Source: a virus. Taken from it: a stretch of DNA of 64,000 bases. Below, piece after piece: positions 12,937 to 34,047 of the stretch. Made by a program: the position numbers and the translations under genes. Every line of letters begins with the position of its first letter. Positions within the stretch are counted from its first letter, which is position 1. Under the pieces are notes generated by a model. The model was not told the origin of the DNA. It worked only from the letters and a program-made list of their open reading frames with translations, and did no database searches. Location of the stretch: positions 1 to 64,000 of the IMG/VR virus record IMGVR_UViG_3300021962_000023; one strand, 5' to 3'.

Positions 12937-13527
12937 TTAGTGTTTATGTTTAACTTCGTGCTCTTGCCAAGGTTTAGTTGGTTTACTATTAGGAAAACTG
13001 AAACATCTCCATTTATCCGATTTATCAAAATGAATATGTTTTACCATAGTAGTCGGAACAGTAGCCCCCGTTGGTAATTTAATTGAATTTGCTCCGAATA
13101 TCAATTCCACTTTAATTGTAAGTGGTTCATCATCATCCCATTTTCTTTCTTGCTCTTCCAATAATCTCCACTCACCTCTATTCATATACTGGTCTTGCAA
13201 TGCACAATTTAGATATGAGAATGTTTGTTTAAGGTTTTCCATATTATCAGAAAATGTTGCAGCCGGTGCCAAATGTCCTTTATCATATACATTTGTTTTG
13301 TAATCAGCGCCATCCGATGTAATGATTCCTTTTTCAGTATAGAAATCCATTGTACCTCTATTTACATTGGTAGGTCTATTAGTTGATTTGTATACTAATT
13401 CAATTGGTTGTTGTAATTGTTGTGAATAAATTACTTGAAATACTTGATTTGTAATTTGCACATTTTGTTGTGCTTTTAGAGTTGTTGCTATAACCAATAG
13501 CATAACAATAGATAAAATTTTCTTCAT
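12937..13527 (-). CDS. Secreted DNA/RNA non-specific endonuclease (NucA/EndA-like)
   Basis: Signal peptide; YDKGHLAPAA, TFSYLNCALQ, MNRGEW motifs. Confidence 0.9.
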   Translation of the reverse strand: MKKILSIVMLLVIATTLKAQQNVQITNQVFQVIYSQQLQQPIELVYKSTNRPTNVNRGTMDFYTEKGIITSDGADYKTNVYDKGHLAPAATFSDNMENLKQTFSYLNCALQDQYMNRGEWRLLEEQERKWDDDEPLTIKVELIFGANSIKLPTGATVPTTMVKHIHFDKSDKWRCFSFPNSKPTKPWQEHEVKHKH

Positions 13528-13659: not shown

Positions 13660-13785
13660 ATGATAAACTTACTTATAGCAATTGTACTAATGTGTGGCTC
13701 ATTTGGAGTTACTATTTCAAAAACAACAAAGGATTACGGATTCCGTAAACAAAGAGAACATACTGAACCTTTAAAATTAGATTAA
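13660..13785 (+). CDS. Possible 41-aa single-pass membrane peptide on the plus strand
   Basis: MINLLIAIVLMCGSFGVTISKTTKDYGFRKQREHTEPLKLD*; fills the intergenic gap and overlaps the stop codon of the convergent gene. Confidence 0.4.
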   Translation: MINLLIAIVLMCGSFGVTISKTTKDYGFRKQREHTEPLKLD

Positions 13786-15248
13786 AGCATCATTCTCGTT
13801 CCAATCAAAAAGTTACTTGTGAATCGTTGTGTAGGGTCTGTATTAACATTCAGTTTGTAATTGAATGAGAACCCAAATCTTCTACTGATTTTATAATCAA
13901 CAGACGAACCTACCAAAAATCCAAAGTGTCTACCTACTAATGTATTTCCGGTGAATGTATTATATCCTATTGGAGAATACATAGCAAATACTTGCGGTGA
14001 AAGAGTCAGTTTCTTACTATACTGAAATGGTCTAGTCCAAAATGCTACTGCTGATGTAGAAAGGGATACATCCCAATCTTGTTCAGTGCCTTTAGTCATT
14101 AAATTCACTACACCAATATTGTATCCATACACACCAAATTTAGGATGTGGTTTAATCCAAGTGTATCCAACTAATGCCATATAGTTTCCTTTCAAATATG
14201 CGGTTGTTAGAGAATAAGAATTGATTGCTTTTAATGTACCACCTTCAAAGTCCATTTTGGTTATACCACCACTTAATGCGAATTGGTCTAATGTACTCCA
14301 TGTCATTGATGTTAGGGAGTATGTTACATCTCCTGCCATAGAACTTCTACTAATACCCACATTGGCTATTGCACTAAATGTACCATCTTGATTTTCAGCA
14401 GTTGTTAAATCCGATGAAATCAATAATGGATTAAGGTTTTGAGATTTCTTTTGCTCTTTTTTCTCTTCTTTCTTTTCTTCCTTTTTTTCTTCTTTAGACT
14501 CTTCCTTCTTCTCTTCTTTCTTTGATTCTGATTTAGATTCTTCTTTCTTTTCCTCACTCTTACTTTCAGATTTTGATTCTGATTTAGATTCACTCTTTGT
14601 TTCCGATTTAGTTTCAGTCTTTGTTTCGGTTTTACTTTCAGATGAACTACCCGAACTTTGTGAAGAAGATGATGAAGAACTACCCGAACTTTGTGATGAA
14701 CCACCACTTGCTGGCGATGGGGTACTACTTCCGCTTGATGGTGGAGGTGGAGTTGATGTAGTTGGTGGCGGTGTAGTTGGTGGCGGTGCTACCGGTGGTG
14801 GAGGAATTGCCGCAGATGCCGCTGAACTTGCAGCTGATGATGCCGCTGAACTTGCTGCTCCACTTGCAGCTGTTGATGCCGCTGAACTTGCTGCTTGTGA
14901 GGCGGCTTGCGATGCCGCCTGATTTGCTGCTTGTGAGGCGGCTTGTTGTACTGCGGCCTGTACTGTTTGCTGTACTACTACATTAGTAGGACACCCCATA
15001 GCGTTATATGTAGTGTATGTTGCAGTTATCCACATTTGTACTGCCCCACTTTGCACTTCCAATGGAGTGAATACTCTGACCTGATTATAAAATGAAACAG
15101 TTGCGTATCCGTTTACCATTGTGGTAGTAGCTACTTTAATTTCACCACTACACTTATCTTTATATGTTTGGGTATAGGTTTGTCCGTTCGCTTGTGGAGC
15201 AAATAATGAAATAACAATTATCGTTAAAATTAATAGACATTTTTTCAT
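13782..15248 (-). CDS. Secreted protein with low-complexity stalk and C-terminal beta-barrel-like domain
   Basis: Signal peptide; AASQ/AASS repeats, Pro-, Ser- and KE-rich tracts; alternating beta-strands ending FGFSFNYK..NFLIGTRMML. Confidence 0.75.
   Translation of the reverse strand: MKKCLLILTIIVISLFAPQANGQTYTQTYKDKCSGEIKVATTTMVNGYATVSFYNQVRVFTPLEVQSGAVQMWITATYTTYNAMGCPTNVVVQQTVQAAVQQAASQAANQAASQAASQAASSAASTAASGAASSAASSAASSAASAAIPPPPVAPPPTTPPPTTSTPPPPSSGSSTPSPASGGSSQSSGSSSSSSSQSSGSSSESKTETKTETKSETKSESKSESKSESKSEEKKEESKSESKKEEKKEESKEEKKEEKKEEKKEQKKSQNLNPLLISSDLTTAENQDGTFSAIANVGISRSSMAGDVTYSLTSMTWSTLDQFALSGGITKMDFEGGTLKAINSYSLTTAYLKGNYMALVGYTWIKPHPKFGVYGYNIGVVNLMTKGTEQDWDVSLSTSAVAFWTRPFQYSKKLTLSPQVFAMYSPIGYNTFTGNTLVGRHFGFLVGSSVDYKISRRFGFSFNYKLNVNTDPTQRFTSNFLIGTRMML
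14440..14945 (-). repeat. Coding low-complexity tandem repeats (AAS[Q/S], PPTT, SESK, KEEK)
   Basis: 12-nt period GCCGCTGAACTT-type repeats at ~14815-14945 and degenerate SESK/KEEK repeats. Confidence 0.85.
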
Positions 15249-15251
15249 TTA

Positions 15252-15974
15252 TTACTTTTCAAATACACCCTTCTTAACCATCTTACCCAATATGTTTGCA
15301 CAAGCTATATCCAATGCTTTCTTTGTTGCAATACTAATAGTTGATTGGTTGAATTTGATTGGGTCTATCGTTGCATCCGATAATAGAGTTAATTCTCTTT
15401 TAGTAGTTGCTTCACCTAAACCAGATGCCGCTATAATTGTACCATTCTCTGCATTTGTGAATCTAACCTGTAAACCTAAACGAGTTACCATATTATCTTT
15501 GATACCATCTTTTAAATTAATGGTTTCATCTTCTGATACTGAATAATCATATACTTCGATTTCAACAAAATAATGGGCTAAACGAATTTTACCCATGCCA
15601 TCTAACTTATCCTCCGAAATACCTTTTGCAGATGCCTGAAATTGTTTAACCATTCGGTTTTTAATTTCTGTCTTATCTTCCGTAAATGTAAATCTGTTAA
15701 GATTATCCAAATATTCAAGCGTGATATTAGCCACACCCAAACCAACTCTCTTTTCCTTGAGTTCCGGATATTGGTCATAAACTTCATCACCAATACCACA
15801 TTTAAGGATTTGAATCGGAATTTGTTTTCCCTCATAATTTAAAAATTGGCTAATGTCCGATTTTGTTTCGAAGGATGCTTTGTATTGCTCTGTTTTAGTG
15901 CTTCCTATTGTTTGAGCAACAACCGCAACACTGCTTAACAAAAAGAAACTTAATAATACTAATAAATTTTTCAT
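15252..15974 (-). CDS. CsgG/HfaB-like protein
   Basis: Signal peptide; RVGLGVANITLEYL..RF.F.E...., AHYFVEIEVYDYS, LGLQVRFTNAENGTIIAASGLG match the CsgG fold pattern. Confidence 0.7.
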   Translation of the reverse strand: MKNLLVLLSFFLLSSVAVVAQTIGSTKTEQYKASFETKSDISQFLNYEGKQIPIQILKCGIGDEVYDQYPELKEKRVGLGVANITLEYLDNLNRFTFTEDKTEIKNRMVKQFQASAKGISEDKLDGMGKIRLAHYFVEIEVYDYSVSEDETINLKDGIKDNMVTRLGLQVRFTNAENGTIIAASGLGEATTKRELTLLSDATIDPIKFNQSTISIATKKALDIACANILGKMVKKGVFEK

Positions 15975-16006
15975 ACATAAATGGTTTTTCGTTTATGTAT
16001 AAGTAT

Positions 16007-16036
16007 AAAAAAAGGGAGAAACTATGTTCTCCCTTT
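16007..16036 (-). terminator. Intrinsic terminator
   Basis: AAAGGGAGAA/UUCUCCCUUU plus U-tract; overlaps the TATACTTAT motif at 15999-16007. Confidence 0.8.
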
Positions 16037-16042
16037 AATTAA

Positions 16043-16300
16043 TTATCCTAATTCTTCTTCTTTAGGTTCTCCCTTTTTATGAGTAAACTTATCTAATGTA
16101 TCAGCTCCCATTCCAATTGCTGTTATTACCATTACTGCGTTTACCAATTCTGCCGATGGTTTGATATCACCATGTGAGAAAGAGTTTACTAACATTGTTC
16201 CACATAGGAATAATGCTCCGAAGAATGCAATTACAGGTTTTACTGATATTGCTCCTCTTTCATCTTTGAATAAATCAATTACCCATTCTTTAAAAGTCAT
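16043..16300 (-). CDS. Small two-TM membrane protein (holin-like topology)
   Basis: Two hydrophobic segments and a charged C-tail. Confidence 0.65.
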   Translation of the reverse strand: MTFKEWVIDLFKDERGAISVKPVIAFFGALFLCGTMLVNSFSHGDIKPSAELVNAVMVITAIGMGADTLDKFTHKKGEPKEEELG

Positions 16301-16339
16301 AGTTTTACATTTAAATTGTTAATACTATGTAACCTATTA

Positions 16340-16949
16340 TTATCCTGCCATTTCGGCATCTTCATCTTTAATCTTTCCACACTTTAAACACTCTTCTTCA
16401 CCATCACCATCTAAATCACCCCAAACGTGTTCACATTGTCTATGTGCAAAGTATTCATCAATTTTACCATCACCATCGAAATCTAAACCATCCATTGTAC
16501 CATCTCCATCTTCATCGATTTCAACACCTTTCTTTTCGGTTTGTTTTTCTTCAGTTTTTGGTAGTGATACTACTGATTCTCCAGTTTTTGGTAACACTAA
16601 CGGTTCTATACTCATTGGTACTATTGGAGTATCAGTCATATCTGCTGTATTACTTAAAGATACACCATCTTCTTCATCCATCTTCTGAACTAACATCTTA
16701 TCCTTATCAGTATCACTAAACCAATAATCGATAATCTTACCATAAGAACCAATGAAAGCACCTAACATCAATAATAGAAGTTCTTTCCATTCTGCCGATG
16801 CCGATGTGTTCGATGTAATTGCACCAAAGATACCTCCGATGATTAATATAAATGAACCCAATACTAAAGCGGTGATATACCATCTACGCTTCATCATTGC
16901 GTTTAATAATTCTTTAAAACCGCTTGGCGGTTGGTTATTTTCTGCCATA
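16340..16949 (-). CDS. Two-TM membrane protein with DxDGDG Ca-binding-like repeats
   Basis: Two TMs; DEDGDG, DFDGDG and DLDGDG repeats; CxH...CxxC; start placed at MAENN. Confidence 0.7.
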
Positions 16950-17042
16950 TCTTTGTTTACTTTGTTGTGTTGCATGGTATATTGCCCATGCAAAAAATAT
17001 TATAAAAAATCCCGTAACTCCTATTTTATACCAATCCATTTA

Positions 17043-17369
17043 TTACCAAGCCGATTCTTTCTCTTTGAATTCATCACCATCCTTTTTAGGTTTTGGTTTT
17101 TCAGCCGGCGCAGGTTGTGCATTTCCACCACCAACTGCTTTCTCTTTGATGATTACCGTCTTACCACCACCCGCAGATTGTTGTTGAGTTTGGTTGTTTT
17201 GGATATTGATAACCGGAGCCGCTTGTTGTACTGGCGCTGCTGTTTCTTCTCCACCTGTTAATTTAGTTGTAAACCAACCACCCACACCTAATGTGATAGT
17301 TGATACAAGTCCTAATAGGATATTCTTCAATGAACTTCCTGTACTCTCTGATTTTTCTTCTTCTGCCAT
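17043..17369 (-). CDS. Single-TM protein with Gln/Pro/Lys-rich tail
   Basis: 108-aa ORF in the operon. Confidence 0.7.
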   Translation of the reverse strand: MAEEEKSESTGSSLKNILLGLVSTITLGVGGWFTTKLTGGEETAAPVQQAAPVINIQNNQTQQQSAGGGKTVIIKEKAVGGGNAQPAPAEKPKPKKDGDEFKEKESAW

Positions 17370-17382
17370 AATTGTTTAGTTG

Positions 17383-17754
17383 TTATAATTTATTAAAATC
17401 CGTTATTCCTAATTGTTTACCACTTGCATCGAATAATCCAATTCTATATCCAGATGATGGTAGTGCTGATGTATATACTTTCAATAAGTTATCACCTGCT
17501 TTTACATTCATAGTTTCTTTCGATACTACTTTATTTGCAATATCAAATATCTTAACAGTCACCGAACCTGCGGTTTCCATTTTTATATTCATAGAAACTT
17601 CTGATGTTACAAATGGAGTTTCTAATTTGATACCAACTGAATTTTGAATTTGTAATTCAGGTTTTACTTGTTGAGTTGGTTCAATAAATACCTCCTCTTT
17701 TGTACACCCCACAAATCCAATAGTTAATAATGCTACTATAAGTATTTTTTTCAT
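17383..17754 (-). CDS. Lipoprotein consisting of a T9SS type-A C-terminal-domain-like module
   Basis: Lipobox FVG-C; VTVKIFD..KVV....KAG.N.....SALPSSGYRIGL pattern. Confidence 0.65.
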   Translation of the reverse strand: MKKILIVALLTIGFVGCTKEEVFIEPTQQVKPELQIQNSVGIKLETPFVTSEVSMNIKMETAGSVTVKIFDIANKVVSKETMNVKAGDNLLKVYTSALPSSGYRIGLFDASGKQLGITDFNKL

Positions 17755-17755
17755 T

Positions 17756-18097
17756 TTATTTTATTATTATTGTTGTTTTTGCTATTTCTTTTTTAGTAAC
17801 ATCTTCTAATAACAAATATAAATATTGATATTGTATCGAATTCGTATAAATCTTTTTTACATTTTCACCATTTTGACCAATAAACCTCTCTCTACTAATT
17901 ACTTGCCCACTTTCTTTATCAATTAAAGTCAATGTATATGTTCCAGCCGATGGTAAATCAAAATGTATAGATTGCCCGTTTACCACTTTACTTTCACCTA
18001 CATTGAATATTTTTTCAACAGGCATAGTAGGTGTTGGTAAATCGGGTTTAGTACACCCTACTAACAAAATTAACGATATTAATATTATCTTCTTCAT
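17756..18097 (-). CDS. Second lipoprotein with T9SS CTD-like module
   Basis: Lipobox LVG-C; IHFDLPSAGTYTLTLID..SGQVI....G.N pattern. Confidence 0.6.
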   Translation of the reverse strand: MKKIILISLILLVGCTKPDLPTPTMPVEKIFNVGESKVVNGQSIHFDLPSAGTYTLTLIDKESGQVISRERFIGQNGENVKKIYTNSIQYQYLYLLLEDVTKKEIAKTTIIIK

Positions 18098-20400
18098 TAG
18101 TTTACCTTTACTTTTAATTGTGTTCCACTCTTACTAACCGCATCCGTATTTGAAATTGAAGTCAATCCCAATGTACTACTTAATCCTTGTAATGGTAAGA
18201 ATGTTATTTTATATTCAGTTGTCTTATCCAATGTAGTTGAACCATCCGTTATCAATGAACCCAATGTTACATATGTACCTCTATCAGTTCCAAAATTCGT
18301 AGGTGTTCCTTTTGTAGTGAATTCTACCTTTTCAAAACTTAATGCGGTATTATCATAGTTTAAATTGAATTGAGTACCTACTAACTCTTGTTGTAATGGG
18401 TCTATTGAAATTGTTACTATCAATTTACCACCAACATTTTCACCCATTAGATATGCATTGATTTGATTGGAAACTGATTGAGTTGATAAACTCATTGTTT
18501 TCATCGAATTACTTGCAACACTACTTGTGGTTTGTTTTGCAGAATGGGATAGGTTTACATCGCCCACCCATGTTACATTTAGATTGTAAGTATTGTTTAA
18601 GGTACCAGTATTTAAACTAAATGGATATAAACTTCTTGTTGAATTAAATTGTGTATTCCAATTAGATTTTGTTATAGCATCATATTCGGTTTTACTATAT
18701 AGTTTCATCAAATAAGTTAGTGCCGAATATTGTGTTAATGGTGCAACTCCTGTTAAATGTTGTAATAGTTTATAGGTATCCGCTTCATTGAATACACCAT
18801 TACCATCTACATCTGCGTTCATATATTGTAAACCTGATGTAAATTCCAATCCACTTTCATTTCCAAATATTCCACCATTTGATAATTCTTTAAACGCCAA
18901 ATAGACATCTGTTACACTCACAATACTATTGTATAATGTATTTAGTTCGGTTTGTGAATTTGCTACTATATTAATTCCATGTTGTTTATATATGGAATTT
19001 GGTGTAAACGAATATTCTGCTTTGAATGCATACCAACCATCTTGCAATCTTATATTACTCTGAAATGAACTTACTGCCACTTTACTAGCTAAATCTATAT
19101 TTCCAGGTACTACCCATTGTTTCCACCATCCGTTGAAATCCATTGGTACAATAGGTCCTTCGTATATATCAAATAACTTTACCGATTTTATATCATTCAA
19201 ATTTAAACCCAACCCATAAAATTCTCTCTCATCAATTTGTAATCTATGTCCATTTCTTGATGCTTCATATGGATTTATAAGTGACCATTCTACTTGTCCC
19301 GGTGTTATCGTTGCTTTATATCCATCGGTTAATTTGGTCGTATCTAAATCGTTTGTGATATCTACTTTACCCAATCCACTTAATGCTCTTGTAGTATTAT
19401 TAGTTACACCCCATACATTGTTTACATAAGTGTTTGCTTTTGCTGAAAATTTAGTTTCATCTACATTACCACCGAAATCAAAATTGAATCTTGCAGTTAA
19501 AACTTCCCCATTTGAGTGTGTTACTGAATTTGTATAAAACTCCGTAAATGTTGCATCATCCGGATTAGACCAAGTTCCATATTCAATTACATATGGACAA
19601 TTAAACTGATTCGGTAAATCGTTCCATTGAGAACCACCACCCCATTTAGTTACTGCATAATCTTCATTACCACTATTGTTTGGTTCACCACCTGCCCAGT
19701 TGTTATACTGACCAACTATGTTACCATTCAGTTGTCCATTTGATGTTTTGATTAAAGTTCCCTTTTCAGGTCCTGCATCAATTCTCCATTGCCCTTCAAC
19801 TACTTCATCGGTTAATGCAAACCAAATGCTAGTTTGAGGCACATTATTAAAAATAAATACATCTTCATCGGATGATGTAATTGTTACTAAATAACCTTTT
19901 TGTCCTTTAAATGTTGTTGCTTCCGATGCAGTTCTTGCACCTGTGTATGTATTTCCGTTTGCTATTGGTCTATAAAAGTGTCCGTTTACACCATTGTAGT
20001 AATATCCACTTGGATTGATTGTTGCTGCAACTGATAATTTCACATTACCTTTTGTTGCTCCGGTGTTTATTTTTAACGATGCTAATGCGGTATTGATATT
20101 TGCCATTGAACCCGTTACAACTAAACGAGTCTTATTTCCCGTTAATGTAAATCCACTTGCAGCAGTTAAACCTGTTGTTGTATTAAGATAAAATGTTGTA
20201 CCTGTTGGATATTCTACTAAACTGATTGATGCTAATACTACATCGGTTGTTGCGAATCCATTTAATACAAATCCACTTGCATCTTGCCCCGTTGTAGATG
20301 GTATAAATGATTTAGAGTCCGGAGCAGATACACTCTGTCCGAACCCTAAAAATGATATTAGTAAAAATAATGTAACTAATAGATGTTTCATATTATTCAA
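18097..20400 (-). CDS. Secreted adhesin-like protein: cadherin-like, C-type lectin, dockerin-like and cohesin-like domains
   Basis: Signal peptide; TGSMANINTALASL; YLVTITS..E, WFALTD..EG.W, NW..GEPN, WND; ADVDGNGVFNEAD; LVGTQFNLNYD. Confidence 0.8.
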   Translation of the reverse strand: MNNMKHLLVTLFLLISFLGFGQSVSAPDSKSFIPSTTGQDASGFVLNGFATTDVVLASISLVEYPTGTTFYLNTTTGLTAASGFTLTGNKTRLVVTGSMANINTALASLKINTGATKGNVKLSVAATINPSGYYYNGVNGHFYRPIANGNTYTGARTASEATTFKGQKGYLVTITSSDEDVFIFNNVPQTSIWFALTDEVVEGQWRIDAGPEKGTLIKTSNGQLNGNIVGQYNNWAGGEPNNSGNEDYAVTKWGGGSQWNDLPNQFNCPYVIEYGTWSNPDDATFTEFYTNSVTHSNGEVLTARFNFDFGGNVDETKFSAKANTYVNNVWGVTNNTTRALSGLGKVDITNDLDTTKLTDGYKATITPGQVEWSLINPYEASRNGHRLQIDEREFYGLGLNLNDIKSVKLFDIYEGPIVPMDFNGWWKQWVVPGNIDLASKVAVSSFQSNIRLQDGWYAFKAEYSFTPNSIYKQHGINIVANSQTELNTLYNSIVSVTDVYLAFKELSNGGIFGNESGLEFTSGLQYMNADVDGNGVFNEADTYKLLQHLTGVAPLTQYSALTYLMKLYSKTEYDAITKSNWNTQFNSTRSLYPFSLNTGTLNNTYNLNVTWVGDVNLSHSAKQTTSSVASNSMKTMSLSTQSVSNQINAYLMGENVGGKLIVTISIDPLQQELVGTQFNLNYDNTALSFEKVEFTTKGTPTNFGTDRGTYVTLGSLITDGSTTLDKTTEYKITFLPLQGLSSTLGLTSISNTDAVSKSGTQLKVKVN

Positions 20401-22045
20401 CTATTAAGTCAATTTTATTACCTTTTGCATCTACTGCATCTGAAAGAACAAAGTAGAATAAACCTGCTGTGTTTGTTAATTGAACTTTAGGAGTGAATAT
20501 TAATTTGTATGGAGTACCTGTTTTGATTCTTGCTATCTTTGTTTGGTCAATAGAACCAAATGTTAATCTACCATTATCATGTGTAGAAAAATTTGTAATT
20601 GTACTTCCTGCATCAAATATTACATTATCCAAAGTTAATTTAGATTCATCATAGTTCATTATTACTTGCAATCCAGCTAATTCAGCTCTTGTCAATGTAG
20701 TAGTTAATACAACCTTACCACCTTCCAATGTAGATGTAATACCCAATGTTGCTTTTTCAGCTGCCAATGTTTGGTATGCCATTGGAGCATTAGTCATACT
20801 CATAGATTTGATTGAATTTGTTTGAATATTAGCTACTGAATTTGTAAATTGACCTGCTACTATTTTAGTTGCTATTACCGCAGGGTCTGATGAATGTGAC
20901 CAGTTTAAATCTCCACCCCATGCAAATACTGCGTATACTTCTTTTATAGGAGTATCGATTAATACTTTACTTGTAGGTGTACCATCTAACCAACTTTGAT
21001 TCAACAAACCACTTTGCCATCTAATTGATGTTGATGTTGGAGTTGGAATCATTGATACAGATGTCATATCTTGTCCCATCACATGAGCGAATAATGCGTA
21101 TGAATCGGCTTCTCCAAATGGATTTGAATTATTAGTAACTTTACCAACTCTTTTTTCCAATGTAGGATATGTAAAGAAATTAGCAGTTCCACTAATATCT
21201 GTTTGTGAGTGTCCTAAAAATGCTTTATAAGCATCTGATACAGTTATGATGTTACTCATCCAACTTTTTTGAAATGCAGGTCCAACGAATACACCAACCG
21301 AATCACCAACTTTTACTTGTGTTGTGAAAAGTGCTTCACCACTAGCATCTAATGGTAATTGTGCAATAGGTTGTTGTGCCCAATCAATTGTACCATCTGT
21401 TTTTAATCTCATCAACTGAACACTATGGTCCGTAATTGTATATCCTTGTGGATAAAGAACTTTTACTTTAAATTGAGAAGTATTGCCTGTTACACCTGCA
21501 ATAGAAGTCCATCCTCCACCATAAATAGTTCCAACATTAGAACCATCAGTATCAGTACCAGTTGCCAAATCTATTTTGAAAATATTATTATAAGCGTTTT
21601 GGTCTTTTAGGATATACTTTTGAGTAGCAATTAAACCACTAATAGATGCATCGGCTCTTTGAACTGTCAATTGTCCAACATTCCAATCTGCATTTACTGC
21701 ATAATTCCACGGAGTTAATCCATACTGAACATCCAAATCATTATCACTTGCTCCACCATTGAAAGTAAACTTATAGTTACTCCAACCTGTATAGAATGTT
21801 TGTGCAGATGTCCCTTGATTAAATGTAGTAGATACATACGCCAATGCTTTGTTGTTGTATTGATATCTGAACCAAAGATAACGAGGGTTTTTGATTACCT
21901 GTCCCTTTGTTAGATTGTATTTTACAGTGATAGTATCACCTACCTTTAGTCCGGTTGTTGGTGATAGAGATTGACTGATTGTCAATTGTCCATAAGATGT
22001 TAAGGATACCAATAATATCCCTAAAAACATAATTAATTTTTTCAT
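20393..22045 (-). CDS. Secreted cohesin-like / degenerate dockerin / cohesin-like protein
   Basis: Signal peptide; VGDTITV..FRYQYNNKAL; ITVSDA, GDLNWSHS (cf. GDVNLSHS in the neighbour); LAGLQVIMNYD. Confidence 0.7.
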   Translation of the reverse strand: MKKLIMFLGILLVSLTSYGQLTISQSLSPTTGLKVGDTITVKYNLTKGQVIKNPRYLWFRYQYNNKALAYVSTTFNQGTSAQTFYTGWSNYKFTFNGGASDNDLDVQYGLTPWNYAVNADWNVGQLTVQRADASISGLIATQKYILKDQNAYNNIFKIDLATGTDTDGSNVGTIYGGGWTSIAGVTGNTSQFKVKVLYPQGYTITDHSVQLMRLKTDGTIDWAQQPIAQLPLDASGEALFTTQVKVGDSVGVFVGPAFQKSWMSNIITVSDAYKAFLGHSQTDISGTANFFTYPTLEKRVGKVTNNSNPFGEADSYALFAHVMGQDMTSVSMIPTPTSTSIRWQSGLLNQSWLDGTPTSKVLIDTPIKEVYAVFAWGGDLNWSHSSDPAVIATKIVAGQFTNSVANIQTNSIKSMSMTNAPMAYQTLAAEKATLGITSTLEGGKVVLTTTLTRAELAGLQVIMNYDESKLTLDNVIFDAGSTITNFSTHDNGRLTFGSIDQTKIARIKTGTPYKLIFTPKVQLTNTAGLFYFVLSDAVDAKGNKIDLIVE

Positions 22046-22046
22046 T

Positions 22047-22697
22047 TTACTTTCCTAGTAGTTTGGTGATAAGTTTATCGCAACCTTTTTTCAATGCATT
22101 TGACAATGATGTTTGGTTGAACTTACCACCTTCATCTACTATGAGAGTCGACATTGAGATTTCAGATGAACTTTCTTCAACCATAACCTCTTTGTCTTTT
22201 TTGCCATCCTTATATAAAGTTCCCTTTAAACGGATAACAACTTCCTCCTCATTAGAGTGGAATACTGATATATTCTTTTTTGTAGTCAGAACATCTAAAT
22301 AAATGATGTCCACTTTTAATCTTTGAGTTGCAGATGGAGCTAAATCCAATCCCTTCTCTTGTAAAAATTCTTCTAATATATTTTTTAAACCGAATTCTAA
22401 ATTTCTATTTCCGGCTAACTTACCAATTTTAACTTGATTAGTCACCGATTCAACCCATATATGGTCTTCGGCATTATACATAATGTTGTTAGGATTATTT
22501 TTGTATCTACCATCCAAATGCGTATCAAACCAATTTACAACGGCATTTGTCATTTCTTCCTTTCCAGCGAAATGAAAATAAACCATTGTTAATTGAAAGC
22601 ATAATGCGAATACTACCCATATGCATACAAAATAAACAAAACCTTGTAGAAGTAAATCTCCTATATACGAACTCAATTGAATAGCTCTATTTCTCAT
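22047..22697 (-). CDS. Membrane-anchored CsgG-like paralog
   Basis: N-terminal TM; GLKNILEEFL; C-terminal KFNQTSLSNALKK parallels KFNQSTISIATKK of 15252-15974. Confidence 0.55.
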   Translation of the reverse strand: MRNRAIQLSSYIGDLLLQGFVYFVCIWVVFALCFQLTMVYFHFAGKEEMTNAVVNWFDTHLDGRYKNNPNNIMYNAEDHIWVESVTNQVKIGKLAGNRNLEFGLKNILEEFLQEKGLDLAPSATQRLKVDIIYLDVLTTKKNISVFHSNEEEVVIRLKGTLYKDGKKDKEVMVEESSSEISMSTLIVDEGGKFNQTSLSNALKKGCDKLITKLLGK

Positions 22698-22754
22698 ACC
22701 TATAAATTATTACATTTATAAATATAGGAAATAATTCAAATCGAAATTAATTTT

Positions 22755-23375
22755 TTATAATTTAAATGCTTCGATTGTATGTTGGAACGGGTTACCCTCA
22801 ATTCCCTTCACTAAATCTAACATTTGCTGAGCTAATTCTCTTACTTCGACTTGTGCATGTTCACTATTTCTTAATCTTTGAAAATGTACAAATGACCTGA
22901 AATTAAACATCAAATCCATATCGATTTGCGAATTAAATGTTTTAAAAAATCTCGCACTTTCCTTAGCTCGTTTTCTACCTAACAATGGTGTCAGTTCTTC
23001 TAATGCTGCGTGATAAAATCCATTTGCCGCTCTTGTATACACATCCAATTTATCTTGCCAATCTTTAGGCCAATCAGTTGGAATAAATGTTTTATCCTCT
23101 TTTAATTCTTTGTATCTTGCACTTTCTCCATTGATACTAACACCAATACGATGTTTCAATAAATGAATGTGTGTGGCTTGGTCAACTGTTACTAAAAAGT
23201 GAAACGAACTCTTTTCAAAAGGAGTTTCATGTCCTTCGCTTGCTAACATTGTTAATAATTTTGGAATACGGGCTTTTTTTTCTTCCGTAATATCTCTACT
23301 TGTCGAAGTCCATGCCGATTGAGCATGTGTTAAATCACTTCCATAGTAACCTAGTAATTCTACTTTATTATTCAT
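22755..23375 (-). CDS. thyX: FAD-dependent thymidylate synthase
   Basis: GHETPFE, LLKHRIGVSINGESARY signature, FRSFVHFQRLR..HAQ.E.RE.A. Confidence 0.93.
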   Translation of the reverse strand: MNNKVELLGYYGSDLTHAQSAWTSTSRDITEEKKARIPKLLTMLASEGHETPFEKSSFHFLVTVDQATHIHLLKHRIGVSINGESARYKELKEDKTFIPTDWPKDWQDKLDVYTRAANGFYHAALEELTPLLGRKRAKESARFFKTFNSQIDMDLMFNFRSFVHFQRLRNSEHAQVEVRELAQQMLDLVKGIEGNPFQHTIEAFKL

Positions 23376-23562
23376 TTGGTGTTGATATTGATTTTAAAAA
23401 CTCATTAATTGGTATTAGCATACAGTATAATCCTACTGATTCTAAAAAGTTTAAATCTGGTAAATTTGGTAATAAAATTGTTACATAAGATATTGCTAAT
23501 CCTATAACGGATGTTACAACAAATACATTAAGAGCAATTTTAAATTTGTCTAAATTAGTCAT
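23368..23562 (-). CDS. Small two-TM membrane protein
   Basis: 64 aa, hydrophobic, coupled to thyX. Confidence 0.65.
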   Translation of the reverse strand: MTNLDKFKIALNVFVVTSVIGLAISYVTILLPNLPDLNFLESVGLYCMLIPINEFLKSISTPNE

Positions 23563-24413: not shown

Positions 24414-25271
24414 TTATGCTAATAAGTGGTAATATTCCTTAAAGTGTTTAATTCTATCTGGTAAACCAATAGTTCCACCATTTACTCTTTTGGTGATTGA
24501 TGTTACTACAACATCACTTGCTCCGTTATCTGCTAATTTGTTCAATCCGTTTTTAGACCAGAACCAAGCTGCCGATGCTAATGCGTATTTAGATGATACT
24601 AAATCTGGGTTAGATGGAATATCTACTCCAATTGCTTTACCAAATTGAGTGTAGTTATCTCTGCCCGTTAATTGGATATATCCTCTTCCTCTGAATTTGT
24701 AGCCATCCCCACTTGCTTCTGAACCATTTGCCATACGATTTGCATACACTTTGTTTGCAATCTTTTGTGGGTTTCTAGCGTAAGCTGCTGCTACCGCTTC
24801 AGTTGGGAAATATTTTCTAAAGATACCATTCAAACCTTTTGCTGAATAGTTTAAGTTCTCTTGCGTTACTCTGAATCCACCACTCTCATGTCCACATTGT
24901 GCTAAGAAGTGTGCAACTCTTAATGGGGTATTGATTCCAAATTTAGAAGCAACTTCTGGTATTGAATCAATTACAACTTGAGGAACATGTCCTTTAAGTT
25001 TATCTAATTTTAATCCTGCAACTTGCGGTGCCGGTGTAGATACTACGGGTGGAGTTGGTGTAGATAATGCTACTTGAGCTTGGATTGATTCGCCCATTAT
25101 CTTTGCCCAAGTTGCTGGTCCTACGATTCCATCTGGAGTTAATCCATTAGCCGATTGCCATTTCTTTACAGCCTCTTCAGTTTTTGGTCCGAAATTACCC
25201 ATAGGTTCTACACCCAATTTTGCTTGTAATTTCTTTACATCTTCGTTATTATCACCTTTTCTTAACAACAT
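24414..25271 (-). CDS. Endolysin: peptidoglycan-binding domain plus GH19
   Basis: PG_binding_1 (WQSANGLTPDGIVGPATW); AHFLAQCGHES, FRGRGYIQLTGRDNY, ASAAWFW, TKRVNGG. Confidence 0.95.
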   Translation of the reverse strand: MLLRKGDNNEDVKKLQAKLGVEPMGNFGPKTEEAVKKWQSANGLTPDGIVGPATWAKIMGESIQAQVALSTPTPPVVSTPAPQVAGLKLDKLKGHVPQVVIDSIPEVASKFGINTPLRVAHFLAQCGHESGGFRVTQENLNYSAKGLNGIFRKYFPTEAVAAAYARNPQKIANKVYANRMANGSEASGDGYKFRGRGYIQLTGRDNYTQFGKAIGVDIPSNPDLVSSKYALASAAWFWSKNGLNKLADNGASDVVVTSITKRVNGGTIGLPDRIKHFKEYYHLLA

Positions 25272-25283
25272 AGTAATTTAAGT

Positions 25284-26054
25284 TTAGTATTTTTCTACTT
25301 TTTTATAATCTAATATAGATATTGGTTTAACAACTATTTCGTTCCAAAGATATGTTTTATCATTTTTACATTTCTCCCAATTCCTACAAAGATTGTTTTC
25401 ATTATCTGGGTAGGAAAAACGAAATAAGTTTGCGGCTCTATTGCCACGGTCTGTAACCAAAGTCTTCGCATCAGATTGAAAAGCTGCTACTAACTTACCT
25501 TTTACTTTAACTAACACATTACTTTCGGGTCTGAAAAACTCTTTTGCCTGTGTAGTGAATGTTGAAATGGAATACTGAAATCCTTCTTCAATTCCATCTA
25601 TAATATTTTTTAATCCTTGTTCTGATGCCCAGTGTAGTGTTTCTACTTCGATATCAGTACTACCATATGTTTCTTGTGTAAATTCCTTATCTAATAACAC
25701 ATAAGGTTCTAATGCTCCTCTTGAATAGAAGAATGCAATTTTATCATTGTCGATATTTGCAATATATTTTCCAAATTCAGTTTTCAATCCCCATGCTCTA
25801 TGGTTCACAAAATCTTCAATGAAATCTAATACTTGCTTTTTAGTATATTCATCATATAATTCAGTTTCAACATATAGCTGATAACCAAAGTATTTATTAA
25901 TCAATCCTACTAATGTAGCGTTATCATCAATAACACCACCTCTTGTATCGTACCCTTGCTTTTCCAATGCCAAAAACTCATCAGCTATCTTTTCCCATTG
26001 GGCGATAGTGAAGAATAGATTTTCTGGTTTGTAATATCCTCTAACTGGGTACAT
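25284..26054 (-). CDS. Hypothetical protein
   Basis: 256-aa ORF. Confidence 0.8.
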   Translation of the reverse strand: MYPVRGYYKPENLFFTIAQWEKIADEFLALEKQGYDTRGGVIDDNATLVGLINKYFGYQLYVETELYDEYTKKQVLDFIEDFVNHRAWGLKTEFGKYIANIDNDKIAFFYSRGALEPYVLLDKEFTQETYGSTDIEVETLHWASEQGLKNIIDGIEEGFQYSISTFTTQAKEFFRPESNVLVKVKGKLVAAFQSDAKTLVTDRGNRAANLFRFSYPDNENNLCRNWEKCKNDKTYLWNEIVVKPISILDYKKVEKY

Positions 26055-29044: not shown

Positions 29045-30712
<1,668 letters not shown>

Positions 30713-30777: not shown

Positions 30778-33700
30778 TTATTTTCCAAAGATATAACGAA
30801 TACCTAATTGAGCACTCCACACATCAAATACTGATGAATTGTACTGATAAGTATCTCTAGCTAAGATAGTAGAACCATCTGCTAATTTTTGAGTTGCCAT
30901 CTTATAAACTGGTTCACCATTTGTCACAGTTGAGTAGTTTAAGATAGTTGGGATAGTTGCTCTTTGAGAAACACCCCACTCATTATTCAATAAGTTACCA
31001 AAGTTTAAGATATCTGCTCTGATTTGGATAGTGTTCTTTTTACCTTTAACATTCACATAGATATCTTGTACAACCGATAAGTCGAATCTATGTAACATTG
31101 GTAAGAATGAACCATTTCTTTCAGCGTATTGTCCTCTACGGGTAGATAAATACTCATCTTGTCCGATGTAAGAATCAAATGCTGCTTGTTGTTCAGCTTC
31201 AGTATAAGTTCTTGTACCTACTACCAATGGTGCGAATTTGATATCAGAACCTTTGTTTGGTACAAAGATTAACTCATTATTAGAGATTCTATCTCCGTTC
31301 ATATCTCCACCGATTGTGTAAGAGAAAGGAGAACCCTGATTTCCTACATAACCTAATGTGAATGAAGTTGCTCCACCCATACCTTTACCATATTCTAATC
31401 TATATCCTAACAAACCAACTAAACGATTTGGAGATAAGAAATCCGAATTGGATAAAGATAAATCATTATTACCATTGATACTTCTAGCACCTGTCCAAGA
31501 ACCACTAGCGATTGAACCTGCACTCATAAAGTCTTTAGCATCTGAAACTGTCCATGCGAATGAACCGAAAATACCTTTTTGATATGGATATTCTAATTTC
31601 AATGTCAATGAATTGAAACGAGTATTATCTGAATTAGTTAATACGATTGCGTTTGAAACATTACCATTTACTCTAACACCAGCATCAGTTCCTGCATACT
31701 TTGCTCTCTTATCAACTCCTGCGAATACACCAGTTGGAACGCCAAAGTTTGCGTTGTAATAATGAACTGCATTTAAGTTTACATTTTGGATATATTCAGC
31801 CGTACCGATGAAACCAAATGGTAATTTTTGGTCAACTGCGATATTTGATTTCCAAACTTGTGGGAACTTATAGTTCTCTTCAGTAAATGCTAAATCAAAT
31901 GTGGATGGTAAAGTTGGAGTTGATGGAATAAAGTATTTGTTAGGGTCAGCGGTGAAACCATATTTAGCTGCTGCTGAACCACTCACATCGATATATCCTG
32001 TCAATACACCATTGTTACCAACTTGGTTTGAAATGAATACATATGGAGGTCTACCAGTGAAGATACCCGTACCACCTCTAACTTGCGTTTTTCTATCACC
32101 AAATACATCGTGATTAAATCCGAAACGAGGTTCAAAAAGTGTTTGTGTTTTTGGTAACACACCTGTATTAAATCTCAATCCACCTGCGAATGTCATTGCT
32201 GATACCGCTGGATTTTCTAATGCAGTTTGTTCGAATGAAATAACTGCCGCTCTTAAACCAAAAGTAAACTTTAAGTTTTCAGTTGCTTGGAATTCATCTT
32301 GTCCGTAAACATCCAATCTATCAGTTTTCAATGTTTGCATTGGGTCAACTGCTCCTGGTAATGCCGAATAACGGAATTGGAAACGAGCTGGAACTAATGT
32401 AGAAGGTGCTCCACCATTTGCTAATGATTGATTAGCTGCTGTGTAGAAATCATTTAAACTATTGAAGATATAAACACCATTAGATGCTGGGAAGAATAAG
32501 TTATTAGATTGATACTTCTCATAGTTGAAACCAAATGTTAAAGTGTGTTTGTCTGCATACTTTGTTAAGTTGTTTGTAATATGGAAAGTATTGTAATCTA
32601 ACTTATTTCCTGGAGTGAATGGGTCAAAACCCACTGATGTAAGAGTTGTTGCACCATCTTTAATATCAATCGTTGGGAACATTTGAGAACGATACGCTCT
32701 ATCCTCAATCTGCTTGTCATATCCAACGATTAAGTTATTATGTAATGTGTTTGATAATTTAGAGTTCAATTCCAATACATAAGAACGAGTGTTATCCATA
32801 ATAATGTAACCACTATTTTGGAAACTCATTGCTAATGCCGAAGTTGTTCTATTACCAAATCCTGCAGATGTAGAGTTTGAAATATTAATCTCTGCATCAG
32901 AATCATGTTGTACATAACGAGCCGTTAATTTATGCTTATCATTGATGTTCCAATCCATACGAATCAAAAACTTCTTTGATGTATTTGCGTTGGAATATCC
33001 TTCAAACGGACCCGTTGTGTAGTTAAACTTATCTTGCATAAATTTAGATAAGTCCGATAATTGTGTATAAGTTGGTCTACTAACTTGCGAACCTGTCAAT
33101 GGAGAACCTGTTGAAATCCAAGTTGTACCTGGTTCAGTTTTCTCAATTTGTTCGTAGTTACCAAAGATGAATAATTTGTTCTTAATGATTGGTGCACCTA
33201 AACGGAAACCTTGTACCTTCTCATCAAATTTGGATGCCGTTACTTTAGTTCCTCTAGCGTTATCACCTACATATGTAGAACTATTATTTCTTTGTGTTTG
33301 ATATACAGAACCTTCAATTTCGTTTGTACCACTTCGTGTTACTGCATTGATACCTGCGCCAGTAAACCCACTCTGACGAATATCAAAAGGTGCAATATTA
33401 ACCTGAAGTTGCTCAATCGCATCTAAAGAGATTGCCGATGCTCCCGTTCTACCACCTGCCTGTGCAGATGAACCTAAACCGAATCCATTATTGAATTGAG
33501 AACCATCAATTGTAAAATTGTTCAAACGAGAATCTTGTGCTCCGAAAGAGTTTCCGTTTCCGTTTGGATTGTATTTAGTAATACCATCGATTGTTCTTGC
33601 TCCCGTAATTGGAATGTTTTGTAAATCTCTACGAGTAAATTGTTGAGATGCACCTGTTCTTTCTCTCGATATAATATTGTTTCGAGTAGAAACTACAACA

Positions 33701-34047
33701 ACCTCTTTTAAGGTTTTGTTCTCATCAACTAATAAGAAATTCACATTTGATGTAATACCTAATTGAGTATTAACATCTGTAACTTCCTCTTTCTTCGTAC
33801 CAACAAATGTTGCTTGAATTGTGTAAGGTCCTCCTACTCTAACAGCAGGTAACACATAACTACCCAACTTATTGGTAGATGTAGAATACTTCGTACCAGT
33901 TGGAGTGTGTACTGCTTGGATTGTTGCTCCAACCAACACTTCGTTTTTCTCATTCTTTACAACACCTGAAATTGAGGAAGTGGTTACTTGTCCAAATCCT
34001 ACAAAAGCAGATACTGAAAGGAGAAGCGATAAAATCACTTTTTTCAT
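30778..34047 (-). CDS. TonB-dependent receptor (Oar-like, N-terminal carboxypeptidase-regulatory domain)
   Basis: Signal peptide, plug (ISLDAIEQLQV..DIRQSGFTGAGINAVTRSGTN), beta-barrel ending AQLGIRYIF. Confidence 0.93.
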   Translation of the reverse strand: MKKVILSLLLSVSAFVGFGQVTTSSISGVVKNEKNEVLVGATIQAVHTPTGTKYSTSTNKLGSYVLPAVRVGGPYTIQATFVGTKKEEVTDVNTQLGITSNVNFLLVDENKTLKEVVVVSTRNNIISRERTGASQQFTRRDLQNIPITGARTIDGITKYNPNGNGNSFGAQDSRLNNFTIDGSQFNNGFGLGSSAQAGGRTGASAISLDAIEQLQVNIAPFDIRQSGFTGAGINAVTRSGTNEIEGSVYQTQRNNSSTYVGDNARGTKVTASKFDEKVQGFRLGAPIIKNKLFIFGNYEQIEKTEPGTTWISTGSPLTGSQVSRPTYTQLSDLSKFMQDKFNYTTGPFEGYSNANTSKKFLIRMDWNINDKHKLTARYVQHDSDAEINISNSTSAGFGNRTTSALAMSFQNSGYIIMDNTRSYVLELNSKLSNTLHNNLIVGYDKQIEDRAYRSQMFPTIDIKDGATTLTSVGFDPFTPGNKLDYNTFHITNNLTKYADKHTLTFGFNYEKYQSNNLFFPASNGVYIFNSLNDFYTAANQSLANGGAPSTLVPARFQFRYSALPGAVDPMQTLKTDRLDVYGQDEFQATENLKFTFGLRAAVISFEQTALENPAVSAMTFAGGLRFNTGVLPKTQTLFEPRFGFNHDVFGDRKTQVRGGTGIFTGRPPYVFISNQVGNNGVLTGYIDVSGSAAAKYGFTADPNKYFIPSTPTLPSTFDLAFTEENYKFPQVWKSNIAVDQKLPFGFIGTAEYIQNVNLNAVHYYNANFGVPTGVFAGVDKRAKYAGTDAGVRVNGNVSNAIVLTNSDNTRFNSLTLKLEYPYQKGIFGSFAWTVSDAKDFMSAGSIASGSWTGARSINGNNDLSLSNSDFLSPNRLVGLLGYRLEYGKGMGGATSFTLGYVGNQGSPFSYTIGGDMNGDRISNNELIFVPNKGSDIKFAPLVVGTRTYTEAEQQAAFDSYIGQDEYLSTRRGQYAERNGSFLPMLHRFDLSVVQDIYVNVKGKKNTIQIRADILNFGNLLNNEWGVSQRATIPTILNYSTVTNGEPVYKMATQKLADGSTILARDTYQYNSSVFDVWSAQLGIRYIFGK

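Follow-up and report, generated by a model that had tools for sequence, protein, structure and literature searches.

A conserved block of genes for envelope-targeted proteins in a large freshwater phage of Bacteroidota

A ten-gene block and its conservation

A block of ten contiguous genes (positions 13782-22697, minus strand, ~9 kb) is found in the uncultured phage represented by the IMG/VR record IMGVR_UViG_3300021962_000023, whose first 64 kb (64,000 nucleotides) are referred to here as the window. The carrier genome comprises 198,534 bp with 32% G+C and contains 23 tRNA genes and a transfer-messenger RNA (tmRNA) gene; it is that of a large freshwater (lake) phage with a Bacteroidota host of the Flavobacterium type. 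The genes are numbered in the order of transcription, from g1 (22047-22697) to g10 (13782-15248). A preliminary description of the window had reported these ten open reading frames (ORFs) and had noted a Sec signal, a lipobox or membrane helices on every product, and both statements hold. Together with the synteny presented below, the export signals establish a phage-borne block of envelope-targeted proteins, that is, a conserved and self-contained module fitted to the export rules of Bacteroidota and kept together under rearrangement.

Four of the products (g2, g3, g9 and g10) carry cleavable signal peptides that end in front of a glutamine, which becomes the exposed N-terminal residue. Cleavage before glutamine is known as the Q-rule of Bacteroidota (PMC5837995), and the site is kept among the relatives of g9 (59/59), g10 (52/56), g2 (40/50) and g3 (40/49).

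Packing of the genes is tight, with gaps or overlaps of 1-13 nt across g1-g6 and 3 nt between g9 and g10. Their co-orientation, once offered as evidence for a unit, is trivial and uninformative because nearly the whole genome lies on one strand (the minus strand carries 146 of the 154 ORFs of at least 150 aa across the 198,534 bp). The block had also been divided into two units behind TATAYTTAT motifs. The motif does occur at 22718 and 15999, but the window shows no enrichment: its 10 matches compare with an expectation of 7.15, and 19 of 100 shuffles reach the same number. As scans for sigma-70-type promoters also remained below shuffle expectation, TATAYTTAT was rejected as a promoter class. 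The division into g1-g8 and g9-g10 is better supported, because an intrinsic-terminator-like hairpin (10 bp) followed by a T-run lies between g8 and g9 (16011-16036, minus strand); the sequence TATACTTAT then follows at 15999-16007.

Synteny in relatives had been named beforehand as a check that could refute the proposal, and the block passes it. A protein search of IMG/VR with g9 returned 506 relatives, and the counts of loci given throughout cover the best 80, chosen by g9 similarity. The order g1 to g10 recurs in these 80 loci while the flanks differ, ThyX and the other genes that flank the block in the window almost never being found again. The block is thus far beyond chance. Variants exist, among them a shortened version in which the cohesin-type proteins and the lipoproteins are each reduced to one, as well as lineages in which members are lost or rearranged (e.g. 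L022). In many relatives, a second g1 copy is located directly upstream of g9. The g8|g9 and g9|g10 junctions are insertion hot spots that take up other exported genes, and export signals are present on 54% of the unassigned extra ORFs inside the block compared with 18% of those outside. The slots flanking g9 hold signal-peptide proteins of ~750-1005 aa in several loci (L009:10868-13885, L037, L038, L027, L029, L034, L045 and L068), some of which are homologous to the TonB-dependent receptor encoded elsewhere in the window. Lipoproteins of ~400 aa come after these large proteins, an arrangement that resembles phage-carried SusC/SusD-type pairs.

A reduced syntenic block (gp013-gp019) is present in the cultured Flavobacterium phage vB_FspM_immuto (NC_055915; hereafter immuto). 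There, gp013 is a lectin, gp014 a dockerin-like protein, gp015 a cohesin protein, gp016 the homologue of g6, gp017 the homologue of g9 (52% identity), gp018 a stalked barrel and gp019 the homologue of g1, which sits after the barrel gene. Apart from two small phage-like contigs that were misbinned, a scan of a genome collection turned up a single true bacterial locus (L084), and no prophage copies in host genomes were found. A megablast search of a phage collection with the whole block gave no match. For the ten block proteins, the PHROGs search yielded no match other than signal-peptide-only ones and the NCBIfam search nothing useful, and profile searches of PDB sequences with g9, g1, g10, g2 and g4/g5 gave no meaningful match.

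Proteins encoded by the block

The most conserved gene of the block, g9 (15252-15974, minus strand), encodes a 240-aa signal-peptide protein that belongs to the CsgG superfamily. Its membership follows from transitive evidence only: g9 itself has no match in Pfam at E <= 1, and homologues retrieved with the g9 profile exceed the cutoff of 20.8 bits for the Pfam family CsgG (PF03783), namely L084 (28.6 bits) and P0270 (45.8 bits). An AlphaFold2 model built on 40 homologues (pLDDT 74; a prediction, as opposed to a solved structure) displays the predicted alpha/beta fold of CsgG. The best Foldseek match of the model is CsgG (E 2e-7), followed at lower Z by Cj1090c, PelC, LptE, FlgT and TraT; in a library of viral structures, the best match is a phage protein named CsgG.

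The preliminary description had taken g9 for a CsgG-like pore. The protein lacks a lipobox, its signal peptide ending in VVAQ|TIG without a cysteine, and the same A/S-Q site is found in 59/59 family members examined; bacterial homologues of the g9 domain (L084, P0218, P0228 and P0241) have lipoboxes. The model does not contain the two amphipathic membrane hairpins of CsgG and instead presents three long strands and one protruding hairpin (135-174), at the predicted tip of which (145-165) 8/21 residues are charged and no face is consistently hydrophobic. Further, no family match to the curli partners CsgA, B, E or F was found among the ten block proteins in Pfam or NCBIfam. A demonstrated pore is therefore not accepted, given the missing lipobox, the charged hairpin and the absence of curli partner genes. 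The model is more consistent with a periplasmic, possibly ring-forming, CsgG/PelC-like protein that probably makes no pore by itself. Complex prediction with four copies of mature g9 scored 0.01, which is no answer and counts as evidence neither way.

The g9 family is large. When public metagenomes are clustered at 90% identity, at least 6,662 of the clusters belong to it, nearly all of them unnamed; of the representatives at the 50% level, 247 match at E <= 0.001. In some contigs, g9 is 79-86% identical to that of the window when GroEL is only ~50-52% identical, which may reflect unusually strong conservation or recent exchange in loci that were themselves chosen by g9 similarity. Outside phages, the bacterial relatives P0218, P0228 and P0241 are lipoproteins in which the g9-type domain is fused to a caspase (Peptidase_C14) domain, and P0270 is a Ser/Thr kinase whose CsgG domain is periplasmic. 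These architectures suggest that, in bacteria, the g9-type domain may serve as an envelope sensor or anchor module. The L084 match is a chromosomal lipoprotein from an Ignavibacteriales metagenome-assembled genome (MAG), where it lies in an operon (L084:10001-17437) in which two CsgG-like proteins are encoded ahead of a transglutaminase-like protein (825 aa), a CHASE2-adenylate/guanylate cyclase and an exported protein of 428 aa.

Immediately downstream, g10 (13782-15248, minus strand) encodes a protein of 488 aa with a signal peptide, a stalk and a 12-stranded outer-membrane barrel, and the stalked beta-barrel first suggested for it is borne out by the structure model. From the N- to the C-terminus, the model comprises a two-cysteine domain (residues 23-85, ~60 aa, with conserved cysteines), a long Ala/Ser-rich helix, ~110 aa of disorder that is first Pro/Ser/Thr-rich and then Lys/Glu-rich, a helix at 250-270 and the barrel at 276-487. 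The barrel is confidently predicted, is preceded by a helix and appears to be of the autotransporter/FapF type; FapF is the top Foldseek match. At the level of sequence families, neither Autotransporter nor FapF was matched by g10 in Pfam or NCBIfam at E <= 1, the g10 profile found only low-complexity noise among PDB sequences, and no block protein matched a fap gene family in Pfam.

The first gene of the block, g1 (22047-22697, minus strand; 216 aa), encodes an N-terminal membrane anchor followed by a ~140-aa YajG/Lipoprotein_16-like domain of the LptE/TraT/CsgG fold superfamily. The protein scores 23.7 bits against Pfam Lipoprotein_16 (cutoff 25), which is detected at E<0.01 in 28/36 relatives, two relatives matching TraT. 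Its language-model neighbours are all viral clusters, in which PF03923 is assigned to 14-30% of the members, and in some relatives the anchor is replaced by a plain signal peptide. The block had been credited with two CsgG-like pores, g9 and g1. The CsgG fold of g9 stands, but this protein has neither a lipid anchor nor membrane-type hairpins, and g1 is better described as YajG/LptE/TraT-like than as a second CsgG. The two were also considered as paralogs and the idea was rejected, since hhalign of their profiles gave a probability of 6% over a motif of only 20 columns; the broad fold class is the same.

The two largest products share a C-terminal architecture. The 550-aa g2 (20393-22045, minus strand) starts with a signal peptide and an N-terminal head without assignment and ends in a dockerin-like plus cohesin-like module, while the 767-aa g3 (18097-20400, minus strand) contains a signal peptide, an N-terminal domain, an EPN-type C-type lectin, a middle region, a dockerin-like segment and a cohesin-like domain. 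Homology covers the C-terminal ~285 aa of both (in hhalign, a probability of 99.5 and an E of 1.6e-22); the N-terminal heads differ, and LCCL and other heads are swapped into some relatives. The lectin domain (~139-275) scores 21.5 bits against Pfam Lectin_C (PF00059), compared with a cutoff of 22.6. The same family is found in 25/26 g3 relatives (best 5.8e-11), the immuto homologue reaching 57.3 bits, and the g3 profile matches the PDB lectin CEL-I at 7.4e-6 with the EPN (GGEPNN) and WND motifs aligned. The C-type lectin reported earlier is thereby confirmed, and g3 is predicted to be a calcium-dependent glycan binder.

The cohesin and dockerin assignments made for both proteins fared less evenly. 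Against Cohesin (PF00963), g3 scores 20.7 bits (cutoff 24.1) and g2 gives no match; at E<0.01, the family is found in 13/26 relatives of g3 and 9/26 relatives of g2 (best 2.7e-5). One canonical calcium-loop dockerin-like segment, DVDGNGVFNEAD, is present in g3, and its D/N/E positions are invariant in the family. The segment that precedes it lacks a calcium loop, so that the second repeat is degenerate, as is the dockerin-like part of g2, and Dockerin_1 (PF00404) was detected in 1/26 g3 relatives, at 0.0034. Atlas neighbours of g2 with Dockerin_1 or Cohesin are a lead only. Thus, a cohesin-like domain and a C-terminal module common to g2 and g3 are retained from the earlier assignment, but the calls in the window lie below the Pfam thresholds. 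The situation is clearer in immuto, where gp015 exceeds the Pfam cutoffs for both Cohesin (36.7 bits) and Por_Secre_tail (34.6 bits), the latter being the type A sorting domain of the secretion system of type IX (T9SS). Because this sorting domain is bona fide, the cohesin part of the immuto protein is predicted to be cargo of the host T9SS. The proposed link to the T9SS accordingly finds its footing in immuto, where cohesin and sorting domain are joined in one protein, but not in the window, where no sorting domain passes the threshold.

Two small lipoproteins follow. The 113-aa g4 (17756-18097, minus strand) has the lipobox LLVGC and a small Ig-like beta-sandwich, and the 123-aa g5 (17383-17754, minus strand) carries a C-T-K-E-E motif in front of an Ig-like sandwich that resembles a T9SS sorting domain. 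They are paralogs that align with 22-34% identity. In Bacteroidota, C-X-K-(D/E)2 after the lipidated cysteine is a signal for export of lipoproteins to the surface (PMC5080379). The motif of g5 is of this type, and surface exposure of the protein is predicted; among the relatives of g5, the motif is strict in 14/41 and partial in 19/41. Among the relatives of g4 the motif is partial only, with Lys at +3 and Asp/Glu at +4/+5 in 29/40. Both proteins had been named T9SS-CTD lipoproteins, after the C-terminal domain (CTD) that sorts T9SS cargo. What stands is the pair of Ig-like lipoproteins and a weak resemblance; the sorting-domain matches all fall below threshold. For g5, Por_Secre_tail (PF18962) reaches 15.7 bits (cutoff 27) and TIGR04183 15.5 bits (cutoff 23), and among the relatives of g4 and g5 taken together DUF3244 (31/64), Por_Secre_tail (21/64) and FlgD_ig are likewise sub-threshold. 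No protein of the window has a threshold-passing T9SS sorting domain, and g5 has no cargo domain upstream. The likeness of g4 and g5 to the sorting domain is a lead.

The remaining three genes encode putative inner-membrane proteins, none of which matches a family in Pfam, PHROG or NCBIfam. The 108-aa g6 (17043-17369, minus strand) has an acidic N-terminus, a weak Gly/Thr-rich membrane helix and a Pro/Ala/Gln-rich stretch with two short beta-prone motifs, and its C-terminal ...GDEFKE..P.W is invariant; the gene is present in 70/80 loci. For g7 (16340-16993, minus strand), which is found in 62/80 loci, the listed ORF of 217 aa starts at a TTG that probably lies upstream of the true initiation codon. 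In most relatives, translation starts at the position of ATG 16945 or no more than a few codons away, and this ATG would give 201 aa. The protein has two membrane helices and a zinc-ribbon-like end (C-x-H...C-x2-C), and from this arrangement both termini are probably cytoplasmic. The second helix and the C-terminal motif are invariant, while the acidic stretch is variable. The description of g7 as a DxDGDG membrane protein is accurate as to the helices and the presence of the stretch here, but DxDGDG occurs in only ~13/30 relatives; it is lineage-specific and was rejected as the defining feature of g7. Finally, g8 (16043-16300, minus strand; 85 aa) resembles a holin in that two membrane helices precede a charged C-terminal tail, and no holin family in Pfam or PHROGs was matched. 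In relatives, the g8 slot is occupied by other two-helix proteins of 79-91 aa, which directly adjoin the endolysin gene in L073 and L077.

Possible functions and relation to known systems

The Sec, signal-peptidase I and signal-peptidase II pathways of the host would deliver the products of the block to three layers of the envelope. The inner membrane would receive g6, g7, g8 and the anchored form of g1. The periplasm and outer membrane would receive g9, with its CsgG fold and no lipid anchor, g10, with its barrel on a long flexible stalk, and g1. To these would be added the lipoproteins g4 and g5 and the large exported g2 and g3, which may be viewed as swappable heads on a common C-terminal module. 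During infection, g9, g10 and g1 could come together as a complex in the outer membrane. With the help of the lipoproteins, this complex would keep an assembly of cohesin and dockerin parts, which binds glycans in a calcium-dependent manner, within the outer envelope or at the cell surface; in immuto, the cohesin part would reach the surface via the host T9SS. The likeliest purpose would be the control of binding to the infected or lysing cell, by masking glycan receptors, excluding other phages or keeping progeny off debris, with a module that is inherited, and probably expressed, with lysis genes. In favour of such a role, TraT, which is matched by the two g1 relatives mentioned above, is a surface-exclusion protein. 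The explanation we favour is thus an outer-membrane complex that holds a lectin/cohesin assembly to control binding and is co-inherited with lysis functions, and it is put forward tentatively, at somewhat less than an even chance.

Several observations weigh against this explanation. The cohesin and dockerin calls for the proteins of the window itself are sub-threshold, and g3 has a single canonical calcium loop. The main gap is that, in this phage, g2 and g3 show no apparent way of crossing the outer membrane; having neither a T9SS sorting domain nor a lipobox, they may stay periplasmic. The stalk of g10, as modelled, could face the surface, as in autotransporters, or the periplasm, as in FapF. 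Contacts among the block products are something we infer, and the conserved order among related phages is partly due to shared ancestry. In addition, the endolysin and holin-like genes that lie repeatedly in or beside the block fit a lysis role no less well for g6-g8, and possibly for g9 and g10.

A lysis role is a serious rival, at least for g6-g8, because of the recurring attachment of the endolysin. A homologue of the window's endolysin lies inside the block in four loci (L009, L011, L073 and L077); in another seven, its distance to the block's edges is 108-339 nt. The holin-like genes for 79-91-aa proteins occupy the g8 slot; in the window itself, the endolysin is 1.7 kb upstream. The block could then be a lysis apparatus that acts at the outer-membrane step or sets the timing of lysis, with g8 as the holin, g7 as its partner or regulator, and g6, g10 (whose stalk of ~250 aa could cross the periplasm), g9 and g1 as a spanin-like or pore-type device that acts after the endolysin has cut the wall. 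A timing role has been proposed for the CsgG/CsgF proteins of phage Melnitz (PMC9004378). The absence of any family match for g6, g7 and g8 and the chance-level, sub-threshold matches of g10 in Pfam, PHROG and NCBIfam also leave room for such a device. However, the lectin, the cohesin proteins and the Ig-like lipoproteins have no obvious job in lysis and yet are kept in nearly all relatives. Features of two-component spanins are likewise missing from the block: g6 has no coiled-coil periplasmic domain of the i-spanin kind, and g4 and g5 are folded sandwiches of ~100 aa, with a surface-export motif in g5, unlike o-spanins. Moreover, g9 and g10 lie behind a terminator and a promoter-like site of their own, apart from g8, and the endolysin homologue is out of the block's reach in most loci, being held by only 20/80. 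A lysis apparatus is accordingly considered to be on the unlikely side as an explanation of the block. Lysis genes are interleaved with the block, a point missed in the preliminary description, and the dedicated surface-building system proposed there is therefore only one of several live readings. A distinctly doubtful variant joins both lines of thought. Here, a g9 ring with g10 and g1, which g6 and g7 would link to the inner membrane, would be an undescribed trans-envelope machine, either a T9SS-independent route for the lectin and cohesin proteins to the surface or a barrel-anchored spanin substitute that opens the outer membrane at lysis.

The block could also represent no single system at all. 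It would then be an island of independent exported accessory genes near the lysis genes (lectin adhesins, a barrel, CsgG-fold and LptE-like proteins, lipoproteins, a nuclease and nutrient receptors), whose order is kept mainly by descent. The uptake of unrelated exported genes, such as TonB-dependent receptor homologues and ~400-aa lipoproteins, into the g8|g9 and g9|g10 slots would be expected of such an island, and so would the two transcription units, the losses and rearrangements seen in L022, the short form and interactions that are only predicted. Nevertheless, a core of g1, a cohesin protein, an Ig lipoprotein, g6, g7, g9 and g10 stays together as flanks and inserts change, even in the distant cultured immuto with its g9 at 52% identity; the g9-g10 and g1-g5 genes are translationally packed with gaps of 1-3 nt; and cohesin-like and dockerin-like parts imply partners. 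An island without common function is therefore judged unlikely. Far less probable is secretion of the curli or Fap kind (type VIII-like), in which a CsgG-type g9 pore or a FapF-type g10 channel would export an unfolded fibre subunit, for which g6 (Gln/Asn-rich) or the low-complexity stretch of g10 would be candidates, and the fibres would aggregate cells. The top fold matches of g9 (CsgG) and g10 (FapF) point in this direction, and phage csgG/csgF clusters are known, for which such 'sibling capture' has been proposed (PMC7029224). However, g9 has no lipid anchor and the 8/21 charged residues of its hairpin are unlike membrane hairpins, no CsgA, B, E, F or Fap family was matched, and g6 is membrane-anchored without amyloid repeats. 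Least credible is the possibility that the large lectin/cohesin proteins belong to the virion, as tail fibres or decoration proteins, with the small genes encoding their chaperones, although receptor-binding proteins of phages often have lectin-like and Ig-like domains and swappable parts. Virions of tailed phages assemble in the cytoplasm, whereas all of these proteins have cleavable Q-rule Sec signals or lipoboxes, and it is on account of the Sec and lipoprotein signals that the idea was rejected. There are no PHROG structural matches either, the variable part is located at the N-terminus and the constant one at the C-terminus, which is the reverse of typical fibres, and the neighbouring genes are for nucleotide metabolism, lysis and a chaperonin.

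Parts of the block have known counterparts. Clusters of csgG and csgF ('curli', type VIII secretion) have been described in pelagimyophages of the HTVC008M group and in the Methylophilales phage Melnitz, with proposed roles in lysis timing, macromolecule uptake and cell aggregation (PMC7029224, PMC9004378). As in the present case, these are lytic aquatic phages with a CsgG-family gene among small exported proteins and no genes for curli subunits. However, their CsgG and CsgF are recognisable and near the proteobacterial proteins, whereas g9 is a remote relative (no direct Pfam match, no lipobox, a charged hairpin) and CsgF is absent. The block further adds a barrel, a YajG/LptE-like protein, lectin/cohesin proteins, Ig-like lipoproteins and inner-membrane proteins, in a phage with a Bacteroidota host. 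Similarly, PelC-PelB and LptE-LptD (PDB 9h80, 5t0z and 5ixm) provide precedents for an outer-membrane barrel that works with a partner of the CsgG/LptE fold. In contrast to the 16 strands of the PelB barrel and the 26 of LptD, the g10 barrel has 12 and looks like an autotransporter or FapF; PelC and LptE are lipoproteins and g9 is not; the block contains no polysaccharide or lipopolysaccharide (LPS) genes; and contact between g9 and g10 is only predicted. The translocators of type Va autotransporters (NalP, EspP and EstA) and FapF resemble the g10 barrel, but g10 matches none of their sequence families, fap genes are missing and, unlike in type Va autotransporters, the 'passenger' would be limited to a domain of ~60 aa, carried on a long low-complexity stalk.

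For the surface proteins, the closest parallels are the non-cellulosomal cohesin-dockerin proteins and T9SS cargo of Bacteroidota, in which cohesin-like and dockerin-like modules also reside on exported proteins. In the block, unlike in these systems, both modules occur in one polypeptide, the head is a lectin and no enzymes are attached. Phage-encoded T9SS cargo with variable heads has been reported for 'Cryophage' (PMC7468147), and the fusion of cohesin to a type A sorting domain in immuto is comparable; the window, by contrast, contains no threshold-passing sorting domain, and the context of CsgG-fold, barrel and inner-membrane genes has not been described for Cryophage. Matches to TraT and to the receptor-blocking lipoproteins of phages (surface or superinfection exclusion; PDB 9fsm and 9fs5) are weak, and TraT is a lipoprotein ring that acts alone. 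In view of the published csgG/csgF clusters (PMC7029224, PMC9004378) and T9SS cargo (PMC7468147), the preliminary description went too far in stating that nothing of this kind had been described in phages. No paper on the combined cassette was found in the literature searched, the coverage of which was incomplete.

With at least 6,662 g9 clusters at 90% identity, the block belongs to a very abundant group of large freshwater Bacteroidota phages, which invest ~9 kb in proteins that are exported to the host envelope rather than built into virions. The block bears on how phages of Bacteroidota, where spanins are rarely recognised, breach or remodel the outer membrane, on the role of phage-borne CsgG-type genes, and on the use of host T9SS and lipoprotein surface export by phages for re-dressing infected cells. 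As the cultured pair of Flavobacterium sp. LMO8 and immuto carries the reduced block, direct tests are possible.

Neighbouring genes

Next to g10 lies a gene for a signal-peptide nuclease of the NUC1/EndoG type (12937-13527, minus strand; PHROG nuclease, 2e-15), an export signal being unusual for a phage nuclease. The protein is 40% identical to gp012 of immuto, which also adjoins the block there, and homologues are found in 29/80 loci at changing positions. The nuclease is thus a possible accessory member of the block. Other neighbours on the minus strand are ThyX (22755-23375), GroEL (29045-30664) and the TonB-dependent receptor homologue (30778-34047). Four freshwater sequencing runs (three on record as RNA, one a guess) contained 5-7% of the sampled words, and no habitat claim is based on them.

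The endolysin gene (24414-25271, minus strand; PHROG 181 at 1.5e-75) is outside the span of the block and genetically linked to it. Between ThyX and the endolysin region, an ORF of 64 aa (23368-23562, minus strand) encodes one or two membrane helices and is a further candidate for the holin. On the other side of the endolysin, a 256-aa protein (25284-26054, minus strand) is encoded, which pairs with the endolysin in L002, L009, L013, L068, L070 and L078.

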